56,671 nt of DNA, taken from the NCBI GenBank assembly GCA_045863855.1, contig BTVV01000033.1, positions 1-56,671 on the forward strand, read 5' to 3'. The notes below the pieces were generated by a model, which was given only the letters and a program-made list of their open reading frames with translations, had not been told where the DNA came from and ran no database searches. Below, one piece after another: positions 10,252 to 27,699 of the stretch (positions are counted from its first letter, which is position 1; the number at the start of each line of letters is the position of its first letter). Both the position numbers and the translations under genes were made by a program. Source of the DNA: Planctomycetota bacterium. GTDB taxonomy: Bacteria > Planctomycetota > SZUA-567 > H5-PLA8.

Positions 10252-10273
10252 TGGAAGGCCGGGGTGAGGAACC

Positions 10274-11074: not shown

Positions 11075-11203
11075 GTCCGGTTGCCTTCCTCGCGCGATAC
11101 CGGTCCGCCGCCGCGCGCCACGGATGCCCGCCTGAGTCTAGCCCTGCTCCCGCATCGGTCCAGTCCAGACGGCGCGTCACGGACTGTGGAGCGTGATGGC
11201 CCG

Positions 11204-11866: not shown

Positions 11867-11929
11867 CGGCTGCGATCTCCCGGCGCGCCGCTACGGTTCG
11901 CATGCCGCGCGGTCGAGCGCGGACGAGCG

Positions 11930-13276
11930 TTACCCGCGCCGGCCGCGGATGCGACCGCCGCTTTTCAGGAACCCGTCGTACCGTTCCATCAGCATGTGCG
12001 ACTCGATCCGGTTGATCATGTCCAGCGCCACGCCCACCACGATCAGCAGGCCCGTGCCGCCGAAGAAGTCCGAGACCGTGAAGCCGACCTTCAGCCCCGC
12101 CTGGATCAACTGCGGCACGATCGCGATGATCGCGATGAAGATCGCGCCCGCGAACGTGATCCGGTTCATCACCGTCTCCAGATACGCCCGCGTGTCGTTG
12201 CCCGGACGGATGCCCGGAATGAACATACCGTACTGCTTGAAGTTCTCGGCATGCTCCTTCGGATCGAAGATCACCGCGGTATAGAAGTAGCTGAAGAAGA
12301 CGATCAGCAGCAGGTACATCGTCATGTACAGGTACGAACCTTGCTGCACGAACGAGGCCAGTTCCTGCACCCACAGCACCGGCACCATCATCAGGAACGA
12401 CGGTAGCATCATCAGCGCTTGCGCGAAAATGATCGCGATCACACCCGACGCGTTGAGCTTCAGCGGCAAGTAGTGCTGCTGGCGGAAGCCCATCCGGCTG
12501 CGCTTGGGCGTCTGCATCGGAATCCGGCGCGTCGCCTCGGTCACGAAGACCACCGCCGTCACCATCAGCAGGAACAGGAAACCCAGCAGGAACAGCTCGC
12601 TCGGACCGATCGACGCCGGACTCGGCGAATCGATCGCCGGATCGAAGCGCCGGAACACTTCCTCCAGCGCCACAGGCATGCGCGAAATGATGCCCACCAT
12701 GATGATCAGAGAAATGCCGTTGCCCAGCCCGAACTCGTCGATCTGCTCGCCCAGCCACATCAAGAATGCCGTACCCGCCGCCAAAATAATCGCCGATTGA
12801 ATCAGGAAGCTCAGCCCCGGATCCGGCACCATCGGCACGCCTTTCATCGGCGGCTGATTCTGCAGCGTCTGACAGATCACCAAAGCCTGGAAGATGCACA
12901 GCACCACCGTGCTGTAGCGTGTCCACTGATTGATCTTGCGCCGGCCGCTCTCCCCTTCCTTCGAAATCTTCTGCAACGCCGGCACAATCGCGCACAGGAT
13001 CTGGAAAATGATCGAGGCCGAGATGTACGGCATAATGCCCAGCGCGAAGACCGATACGCGCGACAGGCCACCGCCGGCGAACATGTCCAAAATGCCGATG
13101 AACTGGCTTAACCCGCCGCCTTCCGTCGGACTGAACATCTGGCGCACGGCTTCGAGGTTCACGCCGGGGAGCGGAATGTGCGAGCCCAGCCGGTAGACCA
13201 CCAGCAGGCCCATCGTCCAGAACAACTTCTTCCGAAGCTCAGGAATCCTGGCGATGTTGGAGAAGGCTTGAAACAT
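11930..13276 (-). CDS. secY: Preprotein translocase subunit SecY
   Basis: FALGIMPYISASII, WLGEQIDEFGLGNGISLII, IPGIRPG, GGTGLLIVVGVALD. Start at MFQAF. Confidence 0.99.
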   Translation of the reverse strand: MFQAFSNIARIPELRKKLFWTMGLLVVYRLGSHIPLPGVNLEAVRQMFSPTEGGGLSQFIGILDMFAGGGLSRVSVFALGIMPYISASIIFQILCAIVPALQKISKEGESGRRKINQWTRYSTVVLCIFQALVICQTLQNQPPMKGVPMVPDPGLSFLIQSAIILAAGTAFLMWLGEQIDEFGLGNGISLIIMVGIISRMPVALEEVFRRFDPAIDSPSPASIGPSELFLLGFLFLLMVTAVVFVTEATRRIPMQTPKRSRMGFRQQHYLPLKLNASGVIAIIFAQALMMLPSFLMMVPVLWVQELASFVQQGSYLYMTMYLLLIVFFSYFYTAVIFDPKEHAENFKQYGMFIPGIRPGNDTRAYLETVMNRITFAGAIFIAIIAIVPQLIQAGLKVGFTVSDFFGGTGLLIVVGVALDMINRIESHMLMERYDGFLKSGGRIRGRRG

Positions 13277-13357
13277 GGCGTCTACCCTGGCCGGCCGTAT
13301 ATGCATCAACGGCCGGTGATTCGAAAAGCGGCAAGCCGGGCAGGCGCGGCCCCGGCC

Positions 13358-13966
13358 TTACTTCGCGGGCGCCTTGGCCTTGGCCGCCTTGGGCGCTTCG
13401 CCGCTCTTGCGCTTTTCCTTCGCCGCCTTGGCTTCCTGCACGGCCTTCTCGGCGTCCTCAAGCAGCTTCTTCTGCTTGGCTTCGCGCACGAACAACGGAC
13501 CGGCCTTCTTGGGCGCGCCTTCCGCCCAGATCGCCTTCCCGCCGGCCTTCTCGATCTTCTCGATGGCGCTCTTGGAGAAGCCGTCCGCCGTTACCGTCAG
13601 CGCCACCGACAACTCGCCTTCGCCCAGAATCTTCACCGGCACGCGGTGAGCGCTATGCAGCAGCCCCGCTTCGCGCAACTGCTCCACCCCCACATTGCCG
13701 CCCTTGAACGACTTGCCCAAATCTCCGATGTTGACCACCGCGAAGACTTCCTTGAACGCGCCGTTGCGGAATCCGCGCTTCGGCAAGCGCCGGAAGAGCG
13801 GCATCTGGCCGCCTTCGTAGGTCACCTTCATCGACCAGCCCGAGCGCGAGGTCGCGCCTTCGCGGCCGCGGCAGCTCGTCTTGCCGTGTCCGCTTCCGGG
13901 GCCGCGGCCCACGCGCTTTTTGCGCTTATGGGAAAGCTGGGCCGTGCGGGCATCGTGCAGTTGCAT
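13358..13966 (-). CDS. rplO: 50S ribosomal protein L15 with Lys/Ala-rich C-terminal extension (202 aa)
   Basis: KRVGRGPGSGHGKTSCRG, YEGGQMPLFRRLPKRGF, VKILGEG, FSKSAIEKIEKAGG. Start at ATG 13966. Confidence 0.97.
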   Translation of the reverse strand: MQLHDARTAQLSHKRKKRVGRGPGSGHGKTSCRGREGATSRSGWSMKVTYEGGQMPLFRRLPKRGFRNGAFKEVFAVVNIGDLGKSFKGGNVGVEQLREAGLLHSAHRVPVKILGEGELSVALTVTADGFSKSAIEKIEKAGGKAIWAEGAPKKAGPLFVREAKQKKLLEDAEKAVQEAKAAKEKRKSGEAPKAAKAKAPAK

Positions 13967-14024
13967 GACGTTCGTCCACCTTATTCGGGCGCGAACTCCG
14001 GCGCTGCGCCGGAGCCACGCGAAC

Positions 14025-14747
14025 TCATTCTTTTTTCTCTTCGGCTCCGCCTTCGGCCGGCTTCTCGGCTTCGGGCTTCGCTTCCGCCACGGGCTCCGCT
14101 TTCGCGGGCTTGGGCTCCGGCTTCGGCGCGGCGGCCTCGGCCTTCGCGCGCTCTTCTTCCATCGCACGTTGCAGCATGGCGCGCTGAGCCTTCGCGCGGT
14201 CGCGCGTCGCCTGCACCTTCTGGATCGACTGGATCATCGGGTCGGCCTGCGGCTCCACTCCCCGCAAACGGCCCACGGTGTCCCGGCTGCGCAGTTCCAG
14301 CAGCGCATGCAGCGCCGCCTTGACCAAATTCTTCGGATTCGTCGTCTTCCCGATGCTCTTCGTCAGCAAATCGTGAATCCCGGCGCACTCCAGCACCTGG
14401 CGCACCGCCGCGCCGGCGATCAGCCCCGTGCCGGGCCGCGCGGGAAGCATGATCACCCGCGCCGAGCCGAACTTGCCGATCACTTCATGCGGCAGCGTCG
14501 AACCGTAAACCGGGATGCGCAGCAGATTCTTCCGCGCGTTCTTCGCCGCCTTCTCGATCGCGGCGGGCACTTCCCGGGCCTTGCCGTAGCCGATGCCGAC
14601 CACGCCTTCCCCGTTGCCCACCACCGCCATCGCGGCGAACGAAAACCGGCGGCCGCCCTTCACGACCTTGGCGCAACGCCAAATGTCGACCACCCGTTCC
14701 GTCAGAATCAGCCCATGGGGCTCGATCCGAGTACCTTGCGCGATCAA
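14025..14747 (-). CDS. rpsE: 30S ribosomal protein S5 with long C-terminal extension (240 aa)
   Basis: [43 protein letters not shown]. Confidence 0.97.
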
Positions 14748-14769
14748 AACGCAACCTCCCTTAACCCGC

Positions 14770-15135
14770 TTAGAACGCCAAGCCGCCTTCGCGAGCGCCC
14801 TCGGCGAGCGCCTTCACGCGGCCATGGTACAGGTACCCGCCGCGATCGAATACGGCCTTCTCGATGCCCTTCTGCTTGGCCAACTGCGCCAGCGCCTTGC
14901 CCACCGTCTTCGCCGCCACCACGCTCCCGCCCGACTTCAGCGATCCGCGCAGATCCTTCGACATCGACGTGGCCGTCACCAGCGTCCTGCCTTCCACGTC
15001 GTCGATCAACTGCGCCTGGATGTGCTTCGAACTGCGGAACACATTCAAGCGCGGCCGCTCGGCCGTGCCCTGTATCTTGCGGCGTACCCGCCGGTGGCGC
15101 TTCATGCGCTTGTCGTTCGACGATTGCTGAGCCAT
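14770..15135 (-). CDS. rplR: 50S ribosomal protein L18
   Basis: [44 protein letters not shown]. Confidence 0.98.
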
Positions 15136-15182
15136 CTCGAATCTCGCTCCGAAAAATCCAACCGCTCGCGTCCAGGCGACCC

Positions 15183-15737
15183 TTAGGTCCCCGTCGCGCC
15201 CACCGTCTTGCCTGGCAGCTTGCGAACCTGCTCGCCCTGGTACCGGATGCCCTTGCCCTTATACACGTCCGGAGGACGGATCGCGCGCAACGAGGCCGCC
15301 GCCTGCCCGACCAACTGCTTGTCGATCCCCGTGATCACCATTTCCGTCTGCGACGGGCACGTCACCGTCACGCCGTCAGGAATCTGGTACACGCGCGGAA
15401 CTTTCGTATTCCAGCCCACCCAGAGCAGCACCTGCTTGCCCGATACCTGAGCGCGGTAACCCACGCCCTGGATCTCGAGCCGCTTCTCGTAGCCCTTCGT
15501 CACGCCGAATATCATGTTCGCGGCCAACGCACGATACAACCCGTGCTTGGCGCGCTCGGCGCGAAGGTCGGAAGACCGGAGCACCATCAGCTCCTTGCCT
15601 TCGACGGCCGCGGAGATCGAGCCGCTCATGGCCAGCTTAAGCTGGCCCTTGGGGCCTTTAACGGTCACCTCGTGACCCTCGACGCTCACGTTAACGCCGT
15701 CGGGGATGGCGACCGGCTTTTTTCCAATGCGCGACAT
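15183..15737 (-). CDS. rplF: 50S ribosomal protein L6
   Basis: [34 protein letters not shown]. Confidence 0.98.
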
Positions 15738-15787
15738 GGCAATGCTTCCCGGTTCCTGCGTCCTGCCTGCGTGCTCAACTCAGCGCG

Positions 15788-16195
15788 TCACTCGACGCGG
15801 CAAAGCACCTCGCCGCCCACGTTGGCTTCCCGCGCTTTGCGGTCCGACATCACACCCTTCGGCGTGGACAGCACCCAGATGCCCAAGCCCTGCAGCACCG
15901 GCTTCAATTCCGTCACCTTCATGTAAACCCGGCGACCCGGCTTGCTCACCCGGTCGATCCGGCGAATCACCTTCTCGCCGCCGCGGCCGTAGCGAAGCTG
16001 GATCAGCAAGTCGTTCTGCACCTTGCACTCGGGGTTGGCCACCACCTCGTAGCGCTCGATGAACCCCTCGTCCTTCAGCGTTTCGCACACGCTGAGGCAC
16101 ACGTTCGTGCTGCGCACGCGGACCTGATCCATGAACCGCATATTGGCGTTGCGGATCCGGGTCAGCATGTCGGCGATCGGATCGGTCAATGGCAT
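15788..16195 (-). CDS. rpsH: 30S ribosomal protein S8
   Basis: TDPIADMLTRIRNA, RVSKPGRRVY, STPKGVM, GGEVLC. Confidence 0.98.
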   Translation of the reverse strand: MPLTDPIADMLTRIRNANMRFMDQVRVRSTNVCLSVCETLKDEGFIERYEVVANPECKVQNDLLIQLRYGRGGEKVIRRIDRVSKPGRRVYMKVTELKPVLQGLGIWVLSTPKGVMSDRKAREANVGGEVLCRVE

Positions 16196-16255
16196 GTCCT
16201 GCTCGCTCCGTAAACTCCGCGAAAGCGCGGCGCTCTTCCCGTTCTCAACCGGACG

Positions 16256-16441
16256 CTACCAGCTCGACTTGCGCACGCCCGGAATCTCACCCTGATGCGC
16301 CAGCTTCCGGAAACACAACCGGCAAATCCGGAACTTGCGCAAATACGCCCGCGAACGCCCGCACAGCTCGCAGCGGTTGTACGCGCGCGTACCGAACTTC
16401 GGCTTTTCCTTGCACTTCACCTTCCAGCGCAGGCTGGCCAT
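16256..16441 (-). CDS. rpsN: 30S ribosomal protein S14, zinc-binding (type Z)
   Basis: 61 aa, [29 protein letters not shown]. Confidence 0.98.
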
Positions 16442-16471
16442 GCATCACTCCTTACCCGTCGTAACTCGCGT

Positions 16472-17077
16472 TCAGCGTTCCCGGAACGGCATGCCCAAGT
16501 GCCGCAGCAGCGCGCGCGCCTGCTCGTCGCTCTTGGCCGTCGTGCAGATCGTCACGTCCATCCCGTGCACCACGTCCGCCTTGTCCGCATCGATCTCGGG
16601 GAACACCGTCTGTTCCTGCAACCCCATCGAGTAGTTCCCGCGCCCGTCGAAGCTGCGCGGAGACACCCCGCGGAAGTCGCGGATACGCGGAATCGCCACG
16701 TTCAAAAGCCGGTCGAGGAACTCGTACATCCGCGGGCCGCGCAACGTCACCCGGCAGCCCACCTTCATGTTCTCGCGCAGCTTGAAGTTCGAGATCGACT
16801 TCGTCGCGATCGTCACCACCGCCTTCTGGCCCGCGATCGTCGTCATGTCGCTCACGCACTGCTCGACGAACTTCGAGTTGCCCTCGGCCCCGGCCTTGCC
16901 GAAGCCCATGTTCAGGCACACCTTCGTCAAGCGCGGCACGGCCATCTTGTTCTTGATGCCGAACTCCTGCATCAGCGCCGGCAGCACCGTGTCCTCGTAG
17001 CGCTTGCGCAAACGCGCCTTCGCCGCCGGAACCACCGGTTTCTTGCCGCCCGCCGCCTCTTTCTTCTCGTCCGCCAT
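16472..17077 (-). CDS. rplE: 50S ribosomal protein L5
   Basis: [41 protein letters not shown]. Confidence 0.98.
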
Positions 17078-17118
17078 GGAATCGCTCGCCTTCTTGCCGC
17101 CCAGGACCCGCTACGCGC

Positions 17119-17448
17119 TCAACCGCGGTTGCGCCACTCGCGCGGGCCCGCCTCCACCAATTCCAGATTCGCCAGCGCGATCGGGCGCTTCATGATCTTC
17201 AGCCCGCCCGCCTCGCCGCTCTTCGGGTTGTAACGCACCGTCTTCCAGTGCTCGAGCCCGCGCGTCGGCTTCTCCTTCTCGCCGCGCTTCGCGCGCTTCT
17301 TCGGCACTTCCAGCACCGCGCGGCCCTTGATCCGGTCCACCTGCAGCACCGTACAGACCAGCGGAGCGCCCTGCTCGTCCTTCGCGTTGCGCCCTTCGCC
17401 CTGCACAATTCGGACCTTGTCGCCCTTGCAGATCTTGCTCTTGATCAT
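17119..17448 (-). CDS. rplX: 50S ribosomal protein L24, divergent
   Basis: Position between rplN and rplE. KOW-like KICKGDKVRIVQG and C-terminal GGL...RPIALANLELV. Confidence 0.85.
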   Translation of the reverse strand: MIKSKICKGDKVRIVQGEGRNAKDEQGAPLVCTVLQVDRIKGRAVLEVPKKRAKRGEKEKPTRGLEHWKTVRYNPKSGEAGGLKIMKRPIALANLELVEAGPREWRNRG

Positions 17449-17837
17449 CACACCACCTCAGCCGCCAGAGAGACGATCTTCATGAAGCCCTTGGAGCGCA
17501 GTTCGCGCGCCACCGGCCCGAAGATGCGCGTGCCGCGCGGCTCTTCCTCGGCGTTCAGCAGCACGATCGCGTTGTTGTCGAAGCGCACCGTGGAACCGTC
17601 CGCGCGCCGGATCGGCGACTTGGTACGAACCACCACGCCCTTCACCACCAGCTTCTTCTTTTCCTTCTTGTTCGCGCAGACGAAATCGCTGCCCGGCTGC
17701 ACCTTCTTCACCGCCACCACGATGATGTCGCCCACCCGGGCGTAGCGGCGCTTCGAGCCGCCCAGCACCTTGATGCACAGCGCCGTGCGAGCACCGCTGT
17801 TGTCCGCCACTTCCACCACCGTCTCTTGCTGAATCAT
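17448..17837 (-). CDS. rplN: 50S ribosomal protein L14
   Basis: [37 protein letters not shown]. Has a short Lys-rich insertion. Confidence 0.98.
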
Positions 17838-17871
17838 CGGTCTATCCGCCTCGTTGCCGCCGCCCGTCCGC

Positions 17872-18183
17872 TCAAACCTTGGCCGCTTCCGTGCCCGGCA
17901 CCGCGGCCAGATCGACCGCGCGCTCCAGCACCTTAATCAGACGCCAGCGCTTCTGCTTCGAAAGCGGGCGCGTGAACTCCACCTCCACCCGGTCGCCCTG
18001 CTTCGCCTCGTTCTTCTCGTCGTGGGCGTGCAGCTTCGTCGAACGGTAAATGTACTTCCCGTACGCTTCGTGCTTGAACAGGCGGCGCACCTCGATCGTG
18101 ATCGTCTTGTGGCGCTTGTCGCTCACCACCACGCCGATACGAGTCACCTTCGCCAGTTCGTCCGTCTTCGCTTCGTCCGCCAT
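17872..18183 (-). CDS. rpsQ: 30S ribosomal protein S17
   Basis: [36 protein letters not shown]. Confidence 0.97.
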
Positions 18184-18262
18184 GAATCGCTCTTCCTACC
18201 CGCTGCCCGGCTGCGTTCTAAGCCTGCACCCGCCGCGCGACGCGCGCGGCCCGGCCACGGCC

Positions 18263-18688
18263 TTATTTGCTCTGACCCGGATCCACGCGCTCCAGCACCT
18301 TGCGCACCCGGCGCGCCTCCGCCAAACGCACCGCCGCCCGGTCCGCCGCGCTCGTCTTCTCCAGGCGCAGATTCTTCAAGCGCACCCGCGGAAGCTGTAC
18401 CCGCGGCTCCGACGACGCCAGCTTGCGAGCCTTCGGCTGAGCGCTCTCCGCCTTCGGCTTCAACTCCGCGATCGACCGGTCCAACTCCGTGCGCAAACCG
18501 CGCTCGCGAAGGATCGTCCGGATACGCGCCACCAGCCGGCGGCCCAGCTTCTTCTCGTGCGCCTTGATCGCCTCGCCGCTGGCCCCGCGGACCGTCGCGT
18601 CGAAAATCTTCTTCTTCTCCATCGCGAGCTGATCCAGCAGTTCCTGGTCCGTCTTCTCGCGCAGGTCCTTGCCGATAATCATGGGCAT
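18263..18688 (-). CDS. rpmC: 50S ribosomal protein L29 with about 75-aa C-terminal extension (141 aa)
   Basis: Position between rplP and rpsQ. KDLREKTDQELLDQL...RRLVARIRTILRER. Confidence 0.9.
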   Translation of the reverse strand: MPMIIGKDLREKTDQELLDQLAMEKKKIFDATVRGASGEAIKAHEKKLGRRLVARIRTILRERGLRTELDRSIAELKPKAESAQPKARKLASSEPRVQLPRVRLKNLRLEKTSAADRAAVRLAEARRVRKVLERVDPGQSK

Positions 18689-18755
18689 TGTACGAATCCT
18701 TACCTCAACACCGGCTCAACGTCGTCTCGTTCCGTCCGTTCAAGCGCCGCGCGCC

Positions 18756-19175
18756 TTACACCGTCGGGCGCCGAGCCACGAACTTGATCTTCACCGGAAG
18801 CTTGCCCGCCTGCTTGCGGAAGAGTTCCCGCGCCAGCAAGAGCGGAATCCCGCCGATCTCGAAGAGGATCGTGCCGGGCTTCACCACCGCCGCCCAGTAC
18901 TCCACTTCGCCCTTGCCCTTGCCCATGCGCGTCTCGGCCGCCGTCGCCGTGACCGACTTGTGCGGGAAGACGCGGATCCAGTAGCGCCCTTCCGTGCCCA
19001 GGCCGCGCGAAAGCACCACGCGGGCCGCTTCGATCTGCTGCGCGCTCAGCCAGCCGGCTTCCAGCGCCATGCAGCCGTAGTCCCCGTAGGCCACGTAATT
19101 GCCGCGCGTCGCCATCCCGCGAATCCGGCCGCGCTGCGACTTGCGGTGCTTGACCCGTTTAGGCATCAAGGACAT
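18756..19175 (-). CDS. rplP: 50S ribosomal protein L16
   Basis: PKRVKHRK.QRGR, QIEAAR, WIRVFP, ETRMGKGKG, KLPVK. Confidence 0.98.
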   Translation of the reverse strand: MSLMPKRVKHRKSQRGRIRGMATRGNYVAYGDYGCMALEAGWLSAQQIEAARVVLSRGLGTEGRYWIRVFPHKSVTATAAETRMGKGKGEVEYWAAVVKPGTILFEIGGIPLLLARELFRKQAGKLPVKIKFVARRPTV

Positions 19176-19821
19176 GGGCCGTCTCCTTCTCGATCTTGCC
19201 CTTGTAGATCCACACCTTGATGCCGATCACCCCATACGTCGTCTTGGCTTCGGCCAGGCCGTAATCCACATCCGCCGTCAGCGTGTGCAACGGCAGCGAG
19301 CCTTCCATGTACTTCTCGGTGCGCGCGATTTCCGCGCCGCCCAACCGCCCCGCGCAGATGATCTTCACGCCGCGCGCGCCCGCGCCGCGCGAAGTCTCCA
19401 CGGCCTTTTTCATCGCGCGCCGGAAACTCGCGCGCTTCAACAACTGCTCGGCCACACCCTGAGCCACCAGCGCCGCGTCCAACTCCGGCTTCGTCACCTC
19501 GCGGATGTTGACCTGAATCTTCTTCGTTTCGCCCGAAGCGAACTTCTGCAAATCCTCGCGCAGCTTGTCGATCTCCGCGCCCTTCTTTCCGATCACCACG
19601 CCCGGACGGGACGTGTGCAGGAAAACGCTGATCTCTTCCCCGCCGCGCTCGATCTCCACGCGCGAAATGCCCGCCTGCGGCAGCTTCGCCATCACGTAGC
19701 GCTTGATCTTCTGGTCTTCCACCAGCCGCGCGCCGAAATCCTGCTTCCGGGCGTACCAGCGCGAATTCCAGGGCCGGGTAATCCCGACGCGGAAACCGAA
19801 CGGATGAATCTTCTGACCCAC
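19159..19821 (-). CDS. rpsC: 30S ribosomal protein S3
   Basis: MGQKIHPFGFR, RPGVVIGKKG, GRLGGAEIAR, PLHTL.ADVDY, YGVIGIKVWI. Confidence 0.98.
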   Translation of the reverse strand: MGQKIHPFGFRVGITRPWNSRWYARKQDFGARLVEDQKIKRYVMAKLPQAGISRVEIERGGEEISVFLHTSRPGVVIGKKGAEIDKLREDLQKFASGETKKIQVNIREVTKPELDAALVAQGVAEQLLKRASFRRAMKKAVETSRGAGARGVKIICAGRLGGAEIARTEKYMEGSLPLHTLTADVDYGLAEAKTTYGVIGIKVWIYKGKIEKETAHVLDA

Positions 19822-19843
19822 GCTCTAGCTCCTGGCGCGCGCC

Positions 19844-20386
19844 CTATTCGGACGCGGCCTGCTTGGCGCCTTCGGACTTCGCGGCGCCCTTCTTGGACTT
19901 GGACTTGGACTTCTTGCTCTTTTTCGGGCCCTTCGCCGGTGCGGCTTCCGCCGAACCTTCCGGTCGCTCGCCCAGCACCACCGTCAGATGCGAACTGCGC
20001 CGGATGATCGGTCGCGCACGCCCCATCGGGCCGGCCTTGAAGCGGTGCAGCCGCGAACCTTCGTTGCAGTACGCCTCCGCCACCACCAGTTCCGCCGCGC
20101 CCACTCGGCCGTTGGACTTCACGTCCGCGTTGCCCAGCGCGCTCATCAGGACGCGGTCGGCAAGGTACGCCGCGCGCTTCGACGAATAACGCAGCACCTC
20201 GCGCGCACGCTCCACCGGCAGCCCGCGGATCTGATCCAGCACCAGCCGGACCTTCTGCGGCGCCATGCGGAACCCGCGCAACGTCGCCCCGTACCGGCCC
20301 TCGGCGTACACCAGCCGCTGAGCCTTCGGATGCCCCTGCTCGATGCGCGCGGGGCTGACGATCTTGCCGTGCCGAATCTGTCCCAT
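19844..20386 (-). CDS. rplV: 50S ribosomal protein L22 with N- and C-terminal extensions (180 aa)
   Basis: RMAPQKVRLVLDQIRG, SALGNA, GRARPIIRRSSHLTVVL, followed by a Lys-rich tail. Confidence 0.95.
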   Translation of the reverse strand: MGQIRHGKIVSPARIEQGHPKAQRLVYAEGRYGATLRGFRMAPQKVRLVLDQIRGLPVERAREVLRYSSKRAAYLADRVLMSALGNADVKSNGRVGAAELVVAEAYCNEGSRLHRFKAGPMGRARPIIRRSSHLTVVLGERPEGSAEAAPAKGPKKSKKSKSKSKKGAAKSEGAKQAASE

Positions 20387-20434
20387 CGTTCCTCAACCTT
20401 CAATCGGGGGCCTGCGCCCGTTCGTACTCGCGCC

Positions 20435-20743
20435 TTACTTCTTCGCCGCCGGAGCCGGCGCCGGAGCGGCGCCCGCTTTGGCCGCGCCGCCCGAATGCCC
20501 GCGGAACGTCCGCGTCGGGGAGAACTCGCCCAGCTTGTGCCCGACCAGTTCCTCGGTCACGTACACGCGCAGGAACGTCTTCCCGTTGTGGACCAAGAAC
20601 GTATGCCCGACGAACTCGGGAATGACGGTGCAGGCGCGCGCCCAGGTCTTGATGGGCTCGCGGCCCCCCTGGTGCTTCTGCTTCTCCACCTTCACTCGAA
20701 GTTTCGGATCCACGAAGGGACCCTTTTTCATCGAACGGGACAT
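20435..20743 (-). CDS. rpsS: 30S ribosomal protein S19
   Basis: [36 protein letters not shown]. Confidence 0.98.
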
Positions 20744-20812
20744 CGTTTGCCCTGCTCCTTGGATTCGCCCTGCTCCAGGCCGCTACGCGCTTACGCCGCG
20801 CACGAGCGAGAC

Positions 20813-21673
20813 CTAGGACACCACTTCCACCGGAGCGCCCTTGCGCCGCCGGATGATCTGCTTGTTGCTGCGCGCCTTGGGCTTGCGCGTCTTGCCGCCC
20901 TTGGCCAGCACGCCCGTCGGGGACTGCGGAATGTGGCCCTTGCGCCGAGCCGCGCCGCCGCCCATCGGATGGTCCACGGGGTTCTTCGCCATGCCGCGGC
21001 CCGTGGGACGCGTGCGCTGCGCCTGCATCCGCCGGCCCGCCTTACCCCACACCACCAACTCGTGGTCCACGTTCCCGACCTGACCGATCGTCGCCCGGCA
21101 CGCTTCCGGAATTTTGCGCATCTCGCCCGAAGGCAGCACGATATGAGCGTACCCGCCCTCGCGCGCCACCAGCCGCGCTTCCACACCAGCCGAACGCGCC
21201 AACTGCCCGCCGTTGCCCGGGCGCAGTTCGATGTTGTGAATCACCATGCCCAGCGGCATGCTCGCCAGCGGCATCGCGTTGCCCACGTCGGGCTCCACGT
21301 TTTCCTTGCCGCTCAACACCTTCGAACCGACCTTCAGGCCCTTCGGCGCGATGATGTAGCGCTTCTCGCCGTCCGCGTAATGCAGCCGCGCGATGAACGA
21401 AGAGCGGTACGGATCGTATTCGATCGCCGCCACCTTCGCTTCGATCCCATCCTTGTCGCGGCGGAAGTCCACCTTGCGGTAGAACCGCTTCATCCCGTGG
21501 CCCGAAATCACGCGGTTCGTCACGCGGCCGTGATGGTTGCGCCCGCCGGTCCCGGGGATGAACTCCCGCAGGCCCGCAATCGGCTTGAGCTTGCCTTCAA
21601 GCTCCGCCTTGTAGTCGATCACCGAGGCGCCGCGGCGGCCCGGAGTCACCGGCTTGTATTGTTTAATCGGCAT
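20813..21673 (-). CDS. rplB: 50S ribosomal protein L2
   Basis: YKPVTPGRR, GGRNHHGRVT, IEYDPYRS, QLARSAG, LPSGE, GKAGR, NPVDHPMGGG. Confidence 0.98.
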   Translation of the reverse strand: MPIKQYKPVTPGRRGASVIDYKAELEGKLKPIAGLREFIPGTGGRNHHGRVTNRVISGHGMKRFYRKVDFRRDKDGIEAKVAAIEYDPYRSSFIARLHYADGEKRYIIAPKGLKVGSKVLSGKENVEPDVGNAMPLASMPLGMVIHNIELRPGNGGQLARSAGVEARLVAREGGYAHIVLPSGEMRKIPEACRATIGQVGNVDHELVVWGKAGRRMQAQRTRPTGRGMAKNPVDHPMGGGAARRKGHIPQSPTGVLAKGGKTRKPKARSNKQIIRRRKGAPVEVVS

Positions 21674-21706
21674 CGTTCTTTCCTGCCTTCCACCACGGCC
21701 CGAGCG

Positions 21707-22390
21707 CTACTCCCAGGACCACCGTTCCGGCGGCCAAAAGCGCCAGCGCACCTTGCCCTTGATCTGCCGCCGCGAGACGTACCCGATCTCCGGATACCGG
21801 CTGTCACGCGAATTCCAACGCCGGTCGCCCAGTACGAAGAAGCGTTCCGGCGGCACCCGGTAGCGTTCGGTCAGCGGACCTTTCGGCTGCGCTTCCCGAT
21901 CCCCGGGCCGTACGTTTTCGATCTCCCAGTCCTGCACCAACGCGCGGCCGTTCACCCAGACCTGCTCGTCGTACAGCTCCACCGTATCGCCCGGACCGGC
22001 CACGACCCGCTTGATGAAGTCGCGGTGCACCCAGCGCCCGCCCGTCTCCATCACCGTCTCGAAAATCACCACATCGCCCAGGTGCGGGTCGCGCCAGCGG
22101 TACGTTAGCTTGTCAATCAGCAGCCGGTCTCCGGGATGATAACCCGGCTGCATCGAATCGCCCTTCACCACCGAGACCTGGAATACGCACAGGTAAATCA
22201 GGAGCGCCCAGAAACCCGCGCGCACCAAAAGCCCCACCCACTCCTTCAGGGCCTCCAGCGCACCGTCGCCCTCGTCGTCCCCCGGCTTCCCGGCGCAGTC
22301 CGCATCCTGCTTCTCGACCCGATCTTCCTCGCGCACCGCTTCCACGATCAGGCGGCCTTCCAGGCCTCCGTCGCGAGCGCCGTCGCTCAT
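21707..22390 (-). CDS. lepB: Signal peptidase I (S26)
   Basis: Single TM helix, box B VKGDSMQP (catalytic Ser), GDRLLIDK, GDVVIF, box D FIKRVVAGPGD (catalytic Lys), box E FVLGDRRWNSRDSR, C-terminal RFWPP. Confidence 0.95.
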   Translation of the reverse strand: MSDGARDGGLEGRLIVEAVREEDRVEKQDADCAGKPGDDEGDGALEALKEWVGLLVRAGFWALLIYLCVFQVSVVKGDSMQPGYHPGDRLLIDKLTYRWRDPHLGDVVIFETVMETGGRWVHRDFIKRVVAGPGDTVELYDEQVWVNGRALVQDWEIENVRPGDREAQPKGPLTERYRVPPERFFVLGDRRWNSRDSRYPEIGYVSRRQIKGKVRWRFWPPERWSWE

Positions 22391-22406
22391 GCCTCTACCC
22401 GCCGCA

Positions 22407-22760
22407 TCAGATCAGGTCGATGGTCTTGCTGTCCTTCGTCAGGCGAATCACGGCCTTCTTGCGCACCCGCGTCTGGCCCACTCCGCTGGCCTTGCGCGAC
22501 ATCCGGAAGCTGCGCTGACGCGGCTTGACGATCATCGTGCTGACGCTTTCCACCTGCACGCCGAACGCCTGCTCCACGGCACGCTTAATCTGGTCCTTCG
22601 TCGACTTCGGGTGCACCTCGAAGGTGTACCGCGCACGATGTTCCTCACCCGACTTCTGGTGCAAGGGAAGCTGGTCGTGCGTCTTTTCGGTCAGCACCGG
22701 GCGGCGCAGGACGTCGTAGGCGTCCTTCACCAGGCCGTGGGCGCGATGATGGCGGCTCAT
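22407..22760 (-). CDS. rplW: 50S ribosomal protein L23 (117 aa)
   Basis: VLRRPVLTEK, YTFEV, K.QIKRAVE..F.V.V, KKAVIRL. ATGA overlap with the rplD stop. Confidence 0.95.
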   Translation of the reverse strand: MSRHHRAHGLVKDAYDVLRRPVLTEKTHDQLPLHQKSGEEHRARYTFEVHPKSTKDQIKRAVEQAFGVQVESVSTMIVKPRQRSFRMSRKASGVGQTRVRKKAVIRLTKDSKTIDLI

Positions 22761-23383
22761 GACTTCACGATCTCCGCGAGGTTCTCCACGGCGTCTTTGG
22801 TCAGCAGCAGACTCTTGTGCTTCAGGATGTCGTAGGCGTTCAGGTTGCGGGCGGGGACGAGGCGGGCGCGTTCGAGGTTTCGGGCGGATTTGACTACGTT
22901 CTCGCCCGGCGTTCGTGCGGCCACCAGACACGACTGATTATCGAGGCCCAGCTTCTTCAACGCCGTCGCGAAGCGCTTCGACTTCGGCGCCTCGTATTCC
23001 AGCTTGTCGATGATCTTGATCTGGCTGTCGATGAGTTTGCTGAGGAGGGCGGACTTCAGGGCTTCGCGGCGCATCCGGATCGGCATTTCCTGGCGGTAGT
23101 CGCGCGGCTGCGGGCCCCAGGCAACGCCACCCTTGCGCCACAGCGGCGATCGCCGCGTGCCCGCACGGGCGCGCCCCGTATGCTTCTGCTTCCAAGGCTT
23201 CTTGCCCGATCCGGCGCGCTCGGCTTTCGACTTCGTCTTATGCGTGCCCAGACGAAGGTTGGCCTCGTATTGCACCACCGCCTGGTGCAATAGTTTGCGC
23301 CGGACCTTCTCGCCCAGCACCTTCTCGTCGAGCGCGACCTTGCCCACTTCCTGGCCTTGCTCGTTGAATACGGACAGTTCCAT
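22757..23383 (-). CDS. rplD: 50S ribosomal protein L4
   Basis: GTHKTK, GSGKKPWKQKHTGRARAG, SPLWRKGG..GPQPRDY, SARNL, LNAYDIL. ATG at 23383 follows GGAG. Confidence 0.98.
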   Translation of the reverse strand: MELSVFNEQGQEVGKVALDEKVLGEKVRRKLLHQAVVQYEANLRLGTHKTKSKAERAGSGKKPWKQKHTGRARAGTRRSPLWRKGGVAWGPQPRDYRQEMPIRMRREALKSALLSKLIDSQIKIIDKLEYEAPKSKRFATALKKLGLDNQSCLVAARTPGENVVKSARNLERARLVPARNLNAYDILKHKSLLLTKDAVENLAEIVKS

Positions 23384-23592
23384 CGCCGCCTTCTCCACCG
23401 CGCGCTACCCCGCGCGCCTTCCAAACACAAGGGAGCCGAAGGCCAAGGAGGTCTCCCCTACAGTCGGGCCACGCCCGACCGCGACCTCGCTAGTCTTCAG
23501 CTCCCTGGAGACTGCTAACCTCGGGCTCTGAACTTACGGCCTTCGCGCCGCTTTCAAGCCCTAGAGGGGTACAAGCCTGCCTCAGCAGGGAG
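23384..23592 (-). ncRNA. Candidate structured 5' leader (r-leader) of the rplD-led operon
   Basis: Non-coding stretch between the promoter and rplD. Contains a 75-nt multi-segment hairpin (23431-23505), small hairpins CCUGC-UGAG-GCAGG and CCC-UCUA-GGG, and GCGCGC-GGGGUA-GCGCGC next to the RBS. Confidence 0.5.
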
Positions 23593-23597
23593 GGCTA

Positions 23598-23625
23598 AAG
23601 ATAGCGAGCACATGTGCTGCGTCAA
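23598..23625 (-). promoter_or_regulatory. Putative sigma70 promoter of the r-protein operon, with a palindrome in the spacer
   Basis: Minus strand TTGACG-16 nt-TATCTT, AT-rich upstream. The spacer contains the perfect palindrome AGCACATGTGCT (23607-23618). Confidence 0.65.
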
Positions 23626-23691
23626 CGCCATTTTTCACAATGCTTGCACAAAGTTAATCTCGCGTCGCCCCAACCACCCTACTCGCGGCAT

Positions 23692-23736
23692 TTATAAAAG
23701 GAAAGGCGAGCCAGCTTCCGCTCTGGCTCGCCTCTC
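23692..23736 (-). terminator. Rho-independent terminator of the pilin cluster
   Basis: 11-bp perfect stem AGGCGAGCCAG/CTGGCTCGCCT (23704-23733), followed on the minus strand by TTCCTTTTATAAA. Confidence 0.8.
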
Positions 23737-23766
23737 AGCCCCCGCATCCAACACGCCATTTTACCT

Positions 23767-26259
23767 TTAAGGTAGCGAGCCGACGTTGCGCGCCCAGCCC
23801 CGGCGCAGCAGGCCCCACGTCACCTGATCCGTATCGTCCAGCGGCAGGAACTGTTGCACTCGCGCATCGTAGTTCACCGTAAAGGCTTTGCGCTCGTAGC
23901 GATAGCTCCCGTCCGGGAGCCGCACCAGGTTGTAGCCGGCCGCCGGCGTGCTGCGCGTGGCCGTACCGCCGGGTACGAGAATCCCCAAATCCGGCGCGAT
24001 CAGCGCGCCGTTGACCTGCATGAACCCGCCCGATTTCGTATTCACCTTCGACCACGAACCGCCCGACCACGTCTGCGTGCCCACGTTCCAGGTTCCCGAG
24101 TACTTCTGAATCCGCTTGCGCTCGATCGCGAAGATCGCGTTGTTCGTGTAAAGGAGCCCGTCGAGCTGCCGTGGCTGGCTGGGCCGCTTCTGCTCTTCGT
24201 CCAGAATCAGCGCCAGCATGTTCCCCGGCGTAATCCAATCCGGATGGATATGCAGCTTCTGCGCGTTCGCCTCCTGCGGGCCCTGCATCGGGATCTGATC
24301 CAGGTTGCGCATCGTATTGTAAGTGTGCGGGTCGGCCGTGTTGTTCCACCAGTTCTTGGACGTCAGGAACTTGTTCTTGTCGTTTAAGTACACCGGCACG
24401 TTCCCGTTCTTGTAGAAGCTGTAGTACCTCGGCACGTAATTGGGGTCGTACACCGGATTGACCAGCGTGTACTTCGACGCGTTAGTGATGTGCGCCGTGG
24501 TGTTGACGAAATTGCTCGTGCTCGTCGTCGGCACGTGCGTCAGCGTACGGGTCAGTTCGTCGCGATTGAAGAACGCCAGTTCCTCCACCACGAAGTTAGC
24601 AAAGTTGGCGTTATTGGGACTCGCGCCGTTCAGGCTGGTCGTATCCGGCAGCGTATAGCCCGCGACTTTGTCCCCCGGCTCAGGCTTGCCGTACTGGTAA
24701 AAGTTAGTCTTCCCCGAATCCCAGTGCGTCACCTGGCTCAGGTAGTCGCCAATCACGATATTGCCGCCCGCCACCATCCCCAGCAGGTTCGAGGTGTCGT
24801 TCGAGTTCACGCCGAAGACTTCCGAATCCACCACTCCGTCGGCGTTGGTGTCGATCTGCTTGTTCTTGTAGATCACATCTCCGGGCGCGTAGATGTTCCC
24901 CGTGGCCCAGATCTGGCCGTTGCCTTCCACGTACCCGCGGATCATCACGTCGCCTTCGACCATCACCTTCCCGTCCAGCTTGATCGGATTGCTCTGCGTC
25001 CCCACCAGAATCAGATTCCCCGTATGCGTCTGATTGATGTTGGCCGCCGAGCCCGTCGTGGGCAGTTTTGCCGCGTTGTACGACGACCCGATAGGTACGT
25101 TCAACGCGATCCCGCCCGTCACCTTGCCGATCGCATCCGCCGCCGCGTCGGCCTTCTCTTCCGGATCGATCTTGCGGTTCACCGTCGGATTGCCCGAAAC
25201 CACCGGGTGAATGTCCTTGAACGGCGCCGGGAATGTCGTCGGCAGATCCCCGTCGCTGCCTTCCATCTTCACCGGATCCTTCGAGTAGTTCAGGTACAGG
25301 CTCTGGTTTGGCGGCCAAAGACCCGTGCTGCCGTCGGCGCCGTCGTCGTAAAAGCTGGTGTAATGCACCGCCCCGGGCTTGGTGTCCTCGGCCGCTTGCT
25401 GGTAAATGCTGTTCTCCCGGTCGCCGGCGTCGTCCTCGTTGAAGACCGCGCAGCGAAACGTCGATCCCGTCAATTGGCTCATATTCAGCGCGTCCCCGCT
25501 GAACTCTTCCTCGATCCGGCCGCGGTGGTACAGCGTGCCTTCTACGAACGACTCCGCGCTGCCCGGGCGAATCGCCAGCAGCTCCAGCGTGCCCACCTTC
25601 GCGCGTTCGAACGTACCGTAATCGTCCGGGTACGGATTGCGCGCCTTGGCCAGATTCTGGACGTGCAGGTGGCAGACCGAGCAGGTGATGTTGTTGGTCA
25701 GGATCGCGAACTTGAGCCCGTCGAACTTGTCCGGATTCCGCGCCGTCACCGCCCGCGAGGCCCAGACCGTTTCCCCCGAGTCCGCCCGCGCTTCCACTTC
25801 GACCAGCAGGTCCGTGAATTTCAAATAGCCGGCCGACTCCTCGCGGTCCTGCCGCGTCAGCCGGACTTTCGTGATCGTCGCCGCACCGATGCGCTGCCCG
25901 ATCCAGGCCGTCCCGTGCGGATTAGCGGCGTCCACCGTCACCTGCCCCGTCCCCGGACCGTTCAGCGTCGGATCCACCAGCGAAGGAAACCGCGCCGCCA
26001 GCCGGCCCCGGAAATCGCTGTTGCCCAGAGTCCGTTGGTGCAGGTGGTCGCCCCAAAGGTCGCTTACCACCAGATCCACCGCTCCCGTCGAAGCGTAAAA
26101 CGCCGCTTCTCGGCCCAGCGTCCGGTCGGTGTTCTGTGCGTTGTCCGAACTGATCTGCAGGATCGCCATCATCATCGCCGTGGCGAAGACGATCGAGATC
26201 AGCGCGACGATCAACGCCGCGCCGCGCGGGCGCGCACTCCGTTTCGTCAGCATAAACAC
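23767..26259 (-). CDS. Large PilX/GspK-like prepilin protein (830 aa) with extended beta-rich C-terminal region
   Basis: Class III leader RPRG|AALIVAL lacking Glu5 (a PilX/GspK hallmark) and the helix motif REAAFYAS.GA. The C-terminal region is rich in N/T/G/D, with repeats like DGKVMVEGDVMIRG.VEGNGQIWATGNIY. Confidence 0.75.
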   Translation of the reverse strand: MFMLTKRSARPRGAALIVALISIVFATAMMMAILQISSDNAQNTDRTLGREAAFYASTGAVDLVVSDLWGDHLHQRTLGNSDFRGRLAARFPSLVDPTLNGPGTGQVTVDAANPHGTAWIGQRIGAATITKVRLTRQDREESAGYLKFTDLLVEVEARADSGETVWASRAVTARNPDKFDGLKFAILTNNITCSVCHLHVQNLAKARNPYPDDYGTFERAKVGTLELLAIRPGSAESFVEGTLYHRGRIEEEFSGDALNMSQLTGSTFRCAVFNEDDAGDRENSIYQQAAEDTKPGAVHYTSFYDDGADGSTGLWPPNQSLYLNYSKDPVKMEGSDGDLPTTFPAPFKDIHPVVSGNPTVNRKIDPEEKADAAADAIGKVTGGIALNVPIGSSYNAAKLPTTGSAANINQTHTGNLILVGTQSNPIKLDGKVMVEGDVMIRGYVEGNGQIWATGNIYAPGDVIYKNKQIDTNADGVVDSEVFGVNSNDTSNLLGMVAGGNIVIGDYLSQVTHWDSGKTNFYQYGKPEPGDKVAGYTLPDTTSLNGASPNNANFANFVVEELAFFNRDELTRTLTHVPTTSTSNFVNTTAHITNASKYTLVNPVYDPNYVPRYYSFYKNGNVPVYLNDKNKFLTSKNWWNNTADPHTYNTMRNLDQIPMQGPQEANAQKLHIHPDWITPGNMLALILDEEQKRPSQPRQLDGLLYTNNAIFAIERKRIQKYSGTWNVGTQTWSGGSWSKVNTKSGGFMQVNGALIAPDLGILVPGGTATRSTPAAGYNLVRLPDGSYRYERKAFTVNYDARVQQFLPLDDTDQVTWGLLRRGWARNVGSLP

Positions 26260-26269
26260 GTCCTCCGGC

Positions 26270-27112
26270 TCACACGGAATTGCGGAAGTAATTGATCTTC
26301 GTCTTCACCACCCGCACGCGGCCCTTCTTCTCGCGCGGGTCCACGGCCATGATCTGGATCTCCAGCTTCGCGTCCCAGCGGCCGTTGTTGTTCGCGTCGG
26401 TGTACGTGTCCAGGTCCGGTTTGTCGTAGATATTGTTGTCGTTCTTGTCCACGAACGGCTCCGAATCCAGGTTGAAGACTCGCCCCATCACCCCGCCCGC
26501 CAGTTCCACGCAGCACCGGCCGGCCAGCACCCGCGGATTGCCCGGGCCCACCGCCTGGTCGTTGCGCATGAAGACCAGCGAACTGATCGTGAACGTGTCC
26601 GTCTTGTCGCCGTCCTTGTTCAGGTCTTCCTGCACCGCCGCTTCCGAGATCGTCTGGATCGGCGGCACGAACGCGACCTCCGGGTCCCCCGGCTTGACGA
26701 ACTTGATCGTGTACGTCGCGTTCGTCTGCTCCCCGCCCGCCGCGTTATTCCCGAAGGCCACGTGGTTGCCCATATCGCCCGTGCCGAACGCCACCGCCCC
26801 CGTACTCGACCAGTCGATCTGGCCGTTCGTCGACTTTAGCGGCAGCACGTACGTGAACGAAAGCCCGTCGTCGCTGAGCGCCAGCGGCCGAGATTCCTCG
26901 ACCTGGAAGACCATCTCGTTCATCACCCGCCGCAACCGCGTCTGCAGATCCGTCTCGGCGAACTCTTCGGTCGCCACGAGATTCTGCGCCACCAGCAGCC
27001 CGTGGAACGCCACGATCAGCACGGTCAGAATCGCCATCGAAAGCGCGGCTTCGAGCAGCGTGAAACCCGCCTGCGCCCGCCTCCGTCCTAGTAACGACTG
27101 ATGACCGTCCAT
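26270..27112 (-). CDS. PilW/GspJ-like prepilin with N-terminal cleavage/methylation motif
   Basis: RRRAQAG|FTLLEAALSMAIL with Glu5. Dx[DN]xDG-like motifs DLNKDGDKTD, DKNDNNIYD, DANNNGRWD. Confidence 0.8.
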   Translation of the reverse strand: MDGHQSLLGRRRAQAGFTLLEAALSMAILTVLIVAFHGLLVAQNLVATEEFAETDLQTRLRRVMNEMVFQVEESRPLALSDDGLSFTYVLPLKSTNGQIDWSSTGAVAFGTGDMGNHVAFGNNAAGGEQTNATYTIKFVKPGDPEVAFVPPIQTISEAAVQEDLNKDGDKTDTFTISSLVFMRNDQAVGPGNPRVLAGRCCVELAGGVMGRVFNLDSEPFVDKNDNNIYDKPDLDTYTDANNNGRWDAKLEIQIMAVDPREKKGRVRVVKTKINYFRNSV

Positions 27113-27699
27113 GTCTCGTACCGCTCCTCGCCGTAGCGCCCCATCCAGCGGATGATCACGCCCACCGGGTATCGCCGGCCCGTCTTGTTGGTCACGATCG
27201 CCGCGTGATTGTCCAGCGTGTCGCCGTCCATGTTCAGATCCAGCGGCAGTGGGAACGACTTCACCCCGTCGGGCAGGCCGTTCTTGGGCAGGAGATCCCC
27301 GCCCCAGTCCGCGCGGTCCTTCGTCTCGTCCGTCACGATCACCAGTTCGCCCGCGTAATCGTCCACCAGCCCCGGCAGCACGCCGCGCGCGGGTTCATTC
27401 GGATCGTGGCTCAGGTACACCCGGAACGGGAAACGCCGCTGCGTCAGCGGATCGACCGGAAACTGGATCATCAGCTCGTCGAACGCCGTAGCGGCCACGA
27501 TCTCCAGCGCTTCCCGCGTCGCCCGCGCCGCCGCCGCGTACTCGTCCGACTGCCGCGTCGCCGACATCGCCGTCACGTGCGCCTGCGTCAGCGACGCCGC
27601 GCAGATCGCCAGCAGCGTCGCCGCCACCAGAATCTCCAGCAACGAAAGGCCCCGCGGCCGCGTCTTTCCGGGTCGGAGCATGCGCGCGATCGAACGCAT
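27088..27699 (-). CDS. PilV/GspI-like prepilin with N-terminal cleavage/methylation motif
   Basis: RPRG|LSLLEILVAATLL with Glu5, A..A.REALE helix, DLNMDGDTLD motif, C-terminal V.IRW. Confidence 0.8.
   Translation of the reverse strand: MRSIARMLRPGKTRPRGLSLLEILVAATLLAICAASLTQAHVTAMSATRQSDEYAAAARATREALEIVAATAFDELMIQFPVDPLTQRRFPFRVYLSHDPNEPARGVLPGLVDDYAGELVIVTDETKDRADWGGDLLPKNGLPDGVKSFPLPLDLNMDGDTLDNHAAIVTNKTGRRYPVGVIIRWMGRYGEERYETWTVISRY

Follow-up and report, generated by a model that had tools for sequence, protein, structure and literature searches.

Altered exit-port proteins and a lepB gene within the L4-to-MAP ribosomal-protein cluster of an uncultured Planctomycetota order

The window analysed here is a stretch of 56,671 nucleotides (nt) from a Planctomycetota bacterium (GTDB lineage Bacteria; Planctomycetota; SZUA-567; H5-PLA8; assembly GCA_045863855.1, contig BTVV01000033.1, positions 1 to 56,671 of the forward strand). 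It carries the L4-to-MAP ribosomal-protein cluster of an uncultured order of this phylum, in which the four proteins of the ribosomal exit ring (L22, L23, L24 and L29) are altered and a gene for a predicted signal peptidase I, lepB, stands between the genes for L23 and L2. The open reading frame (ORF) list, combined with Pfam and NCBIfam searches, revealed a single tightly packed cluster on the minus strand, running from 23398 to 10274 in the order L4-L23-lepB-L2-S19-L22-S3-L16-L29-S17-L14-L24-L5-S14-S8-L6-L18-S5-L15-secY-adk-map. An initial annotation, made from the sequence alone, had correctly described an operon that opens with L4-L23-lepB and closes with secY-adk-map. The S10 operon is split, with S10 and L3 on other contigs (G000 C88 and C13) and positions 23399-23766 of the window ahead of L4; beyond map lies a sulfate permease gene on the plus strand (8350-10248). 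A consensus scan, the only source for these signals, placed a promoter-like site ahead of L4 (23625-23598, minus strand) and a terminator-like hairpin 3' of the upstream gene for a protein of 830 amino acids (aa) (23736-23701, minus strand), and found no minus-strand terminator-like site within 10000-23700.

L22, L23, L24 and L29 encircle the tunnel exit, and L4 and the L22 hairpin make the constriction. With the E. coli K-12 proteins of the annotated record as the reference for lengths and alignments, L29 of the window measures 141 aa against 63, L22 180 against 110, L23 117 against 100 and L24 about 109-110 against 104. The L29 gene (rpmC, 18263..18688; all genes of the cluster are on the minus strand) occupies the position expected of uL29, between rplP and rpsQ, and its product scores above the family cut-offs of PF00831 (39.2 bits, cut-off 24.5) and TIGR00012 (31.5 bits, cut-off 22.6). 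The Pfam domain covers residues 7-63 and is followed by a C-terminal extension of 78 aa, which bears out the earlier remark that L29 is doubled at 141 aa. An AlphaFold2 model (predicted local distance difference test, pLDDT, 84.9; predicted template-modelling score, pTM, 0.72) places the helices of the extension at residues 43-82, 85-92, 104-107 and 114-131, and according to this model the extension is a confidently folded helical C-terminal module. In Foldseek comparisons the core of about 60 residues superposes on bacterial uL29 chains (target-normalised TM-score, TMt, 0.80-0.89; root-mean-square deviation, rmsd, 1.4-1.8), and among solved structures nothing matched the extension, the core alone fitting. 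Eukaryotic and archaeal uL29 carries a C-terminal helical extension, and the window's L29 resembles it in having a core followed by extra helices, but the alignment to eukaryotic chains is weak and partial (5xy3_h, 110 columns, rmsd 6.8, query-normalised TM-score, TMq, 0.38, E 0.45). Only the 60-residue core fits well, and the extension probably arose independently. Among 5.8 billion protein clusters searched, 54 long-form L29 proteins of 103-165 aa were found in metagenomes; those that bear a name are simply called '50S ribosomal protein L29' of Planctomycetota, and the 24 long forms that were aligned share invariant residues in a C-terminal motif. Close relatives are also represented by DNA in metagenomes of bioreactors, sludge and aquaculture.

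Conservation was measured among four members of the window's family (f1), namely the window, G091 and two contigs of metagenome-assembled genomes (MAGs). Identity between the window and the three others is 43-53% for the L29 extension and 38-61% for the N-terminal extension of L22. The L22 gene (rplV, 19844..20386, 180 aa) lies at the expected operon position, and its product matches TIGR01044 over residues 34-137 (E 1.7e-24, 86 bits against a curated cut-off of 73.65). Both L22 extensions had been recognised in the initial annotation, and they measure 29 aa ahead of the E. coli start and about 42-45 Lys-rich aa past the E. coli end; the C-terminal Lys-rich tail is variable. The tunnel hairpin of L22 has the same length as in E. 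coli. L4, encoded by the first gene of the cluster (rplD, 22757..23398, 213 aa, PF00573 E 1.5e-64), has 0 inserted residues relative to the phylum core. The unchanged hairpin and the lack of insertions in L4 locate the changes at the vestibule, the exit port and the outer rim, and not at the constriction.

L23 is encoded by rplW (22407..22760) at the expected operon position, and its match to NF004363 (E 1.4e-24, 86.5 bits) lies above the curated cut-off of 81. The ORF list gives it 174 aa, with an overlap into L4, but translation probably begins at the ATG at 22760, in an ATGA overlap with the L4 stop, and the protein then has 117 aa. Relative to E. coli it gains 8 aa behind residue 21, and its tunnel hairpin is 5 aa longer, this addition following residue 72. 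The insertion mentioned in the initial annotation therefore stands, at 8 aa and not 15; the His-rich N-terminus reported with it was not found conserved in relatives, and the 5-aa insertion had gone unremarked. The 8-aa insertion is confined to family f1, and the hairpin is also lengthened in the sister families of the order, by 5 aa in one genome and by 2-3 in the other.

The most divergent protein of the ring is L24 (rplX, 17119..17448, 109 aa), whose conserved ATG at 17448 overlaps the L14 stop. It gave no match at E <= 0.01 to the Pfam KOW and ribosomal_L24 families or to the NCBIfam L24 models. It was found with a profile built from other Planctomycetota L24 genes (E 2.2e-14), it lies as expected between rplN and rplE, and a profile of the order's L24 searched against the PDB returned uL24 matches only (best E 7e-4). 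The AlphaFold2 model (pLDDT 84.4, pTM 0.71) has a beta-barrel fold like that of solved uL24, and its top 50 Foldseek matches are ribosome large-subunit chains (TMq 0.45-0.57), the uL24 chains 9i5t_X and 9i5x_X among them. As the phylum profile, the PDB profile and the model fold all point the same way, the divergent ORF can be assigned to uL24. Alignment to E. coli confirmed both L24 insertions of the initial annotation, with 12 extra aa after residue 44 and 4 after residue 55, or 16 in the exit finger; in addition, about 9 extra aa lie in the N-terminal hairpin, and E. coli residues 85-104 are absent. The whole protein is 59-65% identical between the window and the three other f1 members. Most Planctomycetota L24 proteins, as noticed in the L24 genes of the class (loci L171, L172, L183-L190 and L020), end in a CxxC...CxxC zinc-ribbon-like segment, which is lost in f1. 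A separate case was observed in genome G104, where one gene between L16 and S17 (L060:6137-6706, plus strand) encodes L29 at residues 22-78 and, behind it, the KOW and ribosomal_L24 domains (117-186), and L14 is directly followed by L5, an apparent uL29-uL24 fusion of two exit neighbours.

Two of the loops concerned have been studied in E. coli. In the parts of Kudva et al. (2018; PMC6298777) used here, uL23 residues 65-74 and uL24 residues 43-57 are the loops that were deleted, the uL24 loop is described as a finger partly obstructing the exit port, and the deletions shift where nascent domains fold. By alignment, the 5-aa addition of the window's L23 and the 16-aa addition of its L24 fall within these deleted loops. 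The additions are conserved in both sequence and length across the genomes of the order, and comparison of the sequences indicates that they are genuine conserved protein and not chance. The premise of the initial annotation that the exit is remodelled is thus upheld, with conserved additions in all four ring proteins.

The lepB gene (21707..22390, 227 aa) starts 16 nt past the L23 stop and ends 33 nt ahead of the L2 start. Its product is a full S26 signal peptidase (TIGR02227, E 1.1e-40, 139.1 bits against a cut-off of 47; PF10502, E 3.4e-36, 125 bits against a cut-off of 22.9), which combines an acidic tail of about 50 aa at its N-terminus with a single hydrophobic anchor and the S26 catalytic domain. 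All four LepB sequences compared within the family (4/4) have Ser79 and Lys127, in an S-M-x-P box and a K-R box that we take to hold the catalytic Ser and the catalytic Lys. By family membership and these residues, the gene is predicted to code for signal peptidase I. Three further S26 loci are present in the genome. Thirty further genomes in the sample of the phylum encode homologues of the lepB product (31-48% identity) at sites away from L2, which suggests that this gene is a common housekeeping type that moved. The acidic tail is poorly conserved even within the family, and tails of equal or greater length occur in copies outside the operon.

In a FastTree phylogeny built from 15 concatenated proteins (2557 columns for 130 taxa), f1 stands next to family f2 (support 0.966), in which the lepB insertion is absent and L23 (93 aa), L22 (119-131 aa) and L29 (66-68 aa) are all ordinary. 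Of the 62 library genomes of the class, 57 gave an L2 match. In all f1 genomes (17/17, counting the window) the gene immediately 5' of L2 codes for a LepB orthologue; the same holds for G151 of family f79 and G167 of family f80, which makes 19/19 genomes of the order with an L2 match, or in 18/18 without G167, which is marked unpublished and is the only source for the statement on f80. Among the other class genomes with an L2 match, a LepB match beside L2 was seen in 0/38. Gene order was read in 20 further loci: the 12 loci of the order (12/12) have L4-L23-lepB-L2, locus L181 starting at lepB, and outside it 8 class loci were read, of which every one of the 7 extending to L23 has L4-L23-L2. 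The N-terminal extension of L22, the insertion in the L24 finger and the terminal motif of L29 are present in G151 too, and in diverged versions in G167; in neither genome does L23 have the 8-aa insertion, and L24 retains its zinc ribbon in both. On this comparison, the lepB insertion and the changes in L22, L24 and L29 map to the stem of the order, whereas L23 gained its 8 aa and L24 lost its ribbon later, within f1. Co-distribution on a single stem branch amounts to one event, so co-occurrence cannot separate linkage from shared history.

To place these features in the phylum, 151 Planctomycetota genomes were sampled; 149 of them yielded L2, and for 140 the surrounding 15 kb were taken. Among the loci left out, G068, G061, G111 and G123 had full L2 matches, and G121, G124, G126 and G130 partial ones only. 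Lengths were compared as stop-to-stop slots, which avoids guessing start codons, against 106-137 other Planctomycetota loci per gene. Among the exit proteins, the slots of L29 (163 in the window, phylum median 74, top 2%), L22 (196 against 137, top 8%) and L23 (116 against 94, top 6%) are long, and that of L24 is not (109 against a median of 116). Long slots are also seen for L15 (221 against 158, top 5%), S5 (247 against 184, top 9%) and S19 (125 against 96, top 4%). Relative to the phylum core, the residues added number 71 in L29, 59 in L22, 25 in L24 (with 25 lost) and 18 in L23; outside the ring they number about 77 in S5, 54 in L15, 16 in L5, 13 in S19, 12 in S17, 11 in L2 and 7 in L14, and L4, S3, L16, S14, S8, L6, L18 and SecY have little or nothing added. 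That S5, L15 and L5 are extended too had already been noticed, and their lengths against E. coli are 240 and 167, 202 and 144, and 201 and 179 aa. The tails of S5 and L15 equal that of L29 in length, which shows growth away from the exit as well. The Lys/Ala/Pro/Glu content of the S5, L15 and S19 tails and of the L22 C-terminus is 67-94%, and that of the S17 tail 50%, and tail length varies among relatives for S19, S17, S5 and L15. These Lys/Ala/Pro-rich tails, including the L22 C-terminus, are a separate, older and more variable growth. Slot lengths correlate with that of L29 for L23 (rho 0.34), L5 (0.39) and L22 (0.26) in a phylum-wide comparison that ignores phylogeny; the correlations are weak and not exit-specific.

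The junction between L23 and L2 is wider than 400 nt in 6/139 loci, those of the window, G066, G091, G038, G006 and G097. In G038 and G006 it is occupied by S26 peptidases (Pfam E 4e-35 and 1.2e-37) that show the same Ser and Lys motifs as the window's LepB and have short tails. No close lepB orthologue was found in the sister genomes of G038 and G006. Transfer of the flanks together with lepB was considered and rejected, since L23, L2, L4 and S19 of G038 and G006 are no nearer to those of the window than to those of their own relatives. In a small LepB tree, the lepB of G006 groups with copies from outside the operon (support 0.965) and that of G038 with the lepB of the order (support 0.84). 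The tree points to at least two independent captures, plus one that is possibly a transfer (G038). In G097 (L108:2906-3481, plus strand), the same junction is filled by an ORF of 192 aa that is unrelated, has a hydrophobic anchor at its N-terminus and matches no Pfam family.

Our preferred reading, to which we give a probability of about 65%, is a lineage-specific remodelling of the exit port together with a separate relocation of a housekeeping lepB into the operon, as two events in the ancestry of the order. In the remodelling, the uL24 finger, which partly blocks the exit port, would have been lengthened by about 16 residues, uL29 would have gained a helical C-terminal module (78 aa in the window) and uL22 a conserved N-terminal extension of 29 aa. 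Later, within f1, uL23 would have gained 8 aa near the factor-docking surface and the zinc ribbon at the uL24 C-terminus would have disappeared; part of the 5-aa gain in the uL23 tunnel hairpin would predate f1. A structural role for the additions is suggested by their conservation and confident AlphaFold2 folds, and a functional effect by the E. coli loop deletions, as far as described in the parts of PMC6298777 used here; built into the ribosome, the additions most likely reshape the vestibule and the rim where chains emerge and factors dock. Separately, lepB would have moved into the tight rplW/rplB junction, to be expressed with the ribosomal proteins as secY already is. Co-transcription of lepB with ribosomal-protein genes is suggested by contigs assembled from RNA libraries of two studies, of which X11 and X13 span L4-L23-lepB-L2 and X17 bridges each lepB junction; in run X18 the pieces lie inside single genes only and bridge neither junction. 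Nothing ties the remodelling to the lepB move beyond the shared branch of the tree.

Several observations weigh against this reading. Within the class, the distribution of the lepB insertion coincides perfectly with that of the L22, L24 and L29 changes. The L23/L2 junction is the most interrupted one, in four lineages (three with S26 peptidases) against at most two for other junctions, which hints at selection for lepB behind rplW and is the only finding left in favour of a benefit of that position. The lepB of G038, grouped with that of the order in the small LepB tree, may not be an independent event. Changes of at least 14 residues affect 4/4 exit-ring proteins and 3/14 others (Fisher one-sided p 0.011; p 0.069 at a threshold of 10), in a test that is post hoc and small. 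The RNA contigs, for their part, are not proof of a single transcript, and DNA may contaminate RNA libraries. On whether extensions are commoner in exit proteins than elsewhere, a point on which the initial annotation had staked its proposal, the outcome is divided, with a nominal enrichment (p 0.011-0.069) but equally long tails in S5 and L15.

The initial annotation had gone further and proposed a specialised interface between the ribosome, SecY, LepB and MAP. In this scheme uL29, uL22, uL24 and uL23 form a platform that holds LepB, by its acidic cytoplasmic tail, and SecYEG, signal peptides are cleaved co-translationally, and gene order mirrors the partnership. The rplW product is the main docking protein at the exit, and lepB lies right behind rplW, at a junction used in at least two and perhaps three lineages; the additions are basic and the LepB tail acidic, and co-distribution within the class is perfect, on one branch. 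Outside the order the two features come apart: G038 and G006 have lepB at the junction with short LepB tails and ordinary exit proteins (L23 93-95, L22 118-121, L29 64-69 aa), and the clade of G029, G086, G131 and G150 has long L29 (131-244) and L22 (196-244) and no lepB, its extensions seeming unrelated, or distantly related at most, in sequence. The co-occurrence that the initial annotation had proposed as a check thus holds within the class and fails beyond it, extensions and lepB being distributed independently outside the order; the lepB position and the exit additions occur together in one order only and in no independent lineage. SecY is without lineage-specific change (it has no tail, and 3 residues are inserted relative to the phylum core, against a median of 5), and secY-adk-map is the default arrangement, following L15 in most loci that reach so far (the fetched loci include 108 with SecY, 76 with Adk and 73 with MAP). 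The catalytic domain of the S26 family acts on the far side of the membrane, and the tail that would do the holding is poorly conserved in the family and no longer than tails outside the operon. A complex prediction of L29 with LepB residues 1-80 returned no answer (score 0.00) and weighs neither for nor against binding. Phylum comparison gives no sign that lepB in the operon and the exit additions depend on each other, and a ribosome-LepB interface is unsupported beyond one shared branch; the proposed link to LepB, SecY and MAP is not supported. We regard the platform as very unlikely, and equally so its fuller form, in which the exit port is rebuilt, with the long uL24 finger, the longer uL23 hairpin, the helical module of uL29 and an N-terminal arm of uL22, as a proteinaceous collar that recruits LepB by its cytoplasmic tail to ribosomes on SecYEG and couples cleavage to chain emergence; if it were true, the repeated capture of lepB behind rplW would be a genomic trace of the partnership. 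Loss of trigger factor was also considered and rejected, its gene being present and carrying the motif GFRPGKVP.

Another explanation, very unlikely in our view, is that, as in organelle ribosomes, the added protein parts stand in for, or stabilise, 23S elements that have changed near the exit. The uL22, uL23, uL24 and uL29 proteins bind neighbouring rRNA, and the 23S of G066, from the same genus and the only 23S of the order in the comparison (G000 and G091 gave no 23S match), differs from that of f2 by several small insertions and deletions. Its length, however, is 2944 nt against 2930-2937 in f2 and 2904 in E. coli, and in this single 23S no family-specific indel of more than 3 nt was found near E. 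coli 1314-1338 or 1527-1544, positions taken to be exit-region helices. In this near-complete genome the 23S gene (G066:C3:425843-428786) shares a contig with the ribosomal-protein cluster, at a distance of about 22 kb. Neutral elaboration is less improbable, though still unlikely: tolerated decorations would have been fixed on a long branch and kept by chance contacts with no effect on the nascent chain, lepB landing by chance. Tails and insertions of ribosomal proteins are scattered through the phylum (slots reach 289 for L22, 244 for L29 and 355 for S5, and L29 and L24 are fused in one genome), length correlations are weak and not exit-specific, and the operon is often rearranged. Against it speak the conservation of sequence and length across the order, the confident folds, and the position of two additions in loops whose length, in the portions of PMC6298777 consulted, matters for co-translational folding in E. 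coli.

Remodelling of the exit port in one lineage, with lepB relocated apart from it, has partial counterparts in known systems. The window's insertions after uL23 residue 72 and uL24 residues 44 and 55 affect the same two loops, the uL23 hairpin and the uL24 finger, that were deleted in E. coli (PMC6298777, from the parts used); the order's loops are naturally longer, by 5 and 16 residues, a difference conserved among its genomes. In Porphyromonas gingivalis, an extended uL23 loop is described as a lineage-specific exit-tunnel variant in the accessed part of PMC13338714, so that there, too, a universal ribosomal protein has a longer tunnel loop in one lineage of bacteria; unlike P. gingivalis, as far as that part goes, the order changes all four ring proteins and more than doubles uL29. 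The literature, as far as it was accessible, yielded no solved Planctomycetota ribosome structure. In E. coli, lepB lies between lepA and rnc-era and secY in the spc operon, both being secretion genes amid translation genes; unlike there, the order's lepB lies between rplW and rplB, an arrangement seen in only three lineages of the phylum sample. Within the portion of the literature consulted, we found no report of lepB between rplW and rplB, and nothing specific on ribosomal-protein extensions in Planctomycetes, lepB in the S10 operon or lepB with rplS. The case of this order is one of lineage-specific elaboration of ribosomal proteins combined with operon reshuffling. With uL23 and uL24 loops lengthened and uL29 and uL22 modules added in many genomes, the order provides a natural experiment in the opposite direction to the E. 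coli loop deletions, and a structural target for asking how far a bacterial exit port can be rebuilt and whether folding or targeting changes. Moreover, the repeated placement of lepB behind rplW offers a small, testable case of the recruitment of secretion genes to ribosomal operons.

The remaining genes of the cluster are rplB (uL2, 286 aa, 20813..21673; Pfam PF00181 and PF03947), rpsS (uS19, 102 aa, 20435..20743), with an Ala/Pro/Lys tail of about 13-16 aa, rpsC (uS3, 19159-19821) and rplP (uL16, 18756-19175), both of ordinary length, rpsQ (uS17, 103 aa, 17872-18183) and rplN (uL14, 129 aa, 17448-17837), with a conserved 7-aa insertion. Further on, rplE (201 aa), rpsN (61 aa, of the short type), rpsH, rplF, rplR, rpsE and rplO fill 13358..17077; rpsE (S5, 240 aa) has a tail of about 74 aa and rplO (L15, 202 aa, 13358-13966) one of about 53 aa. 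The cluster ends with secY (11930-13309, start codon uncertain), adk (11204-11866) and, as the last gene, map (10274-11074), all three identified with Pfam. The gene for L30, rpmD, is missing between S5 and L15, where the gap is 58 nt only (13966-14025); in the phylum the S5-to-L15 slot has a median of 158 aa, so that L30 has no room there either. Across the phylum the gene order of the S10 operon is plastic and often rearranged: L3 lies directly 5' of L4 in 82/135 loci, and in none of those of the window's class.

Upstream of the cluster, positions 23767-27699 (minus strand) encode the 830-aa protein and two smaller proteins; all three have N-termini resembling prepilin or pseudopilin signals, and none has a Pfam match. 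Finally, a small ORF on the plus strand (1591-2016) carries a Phd/YefM antitoxin domain (E 1.2e-7).

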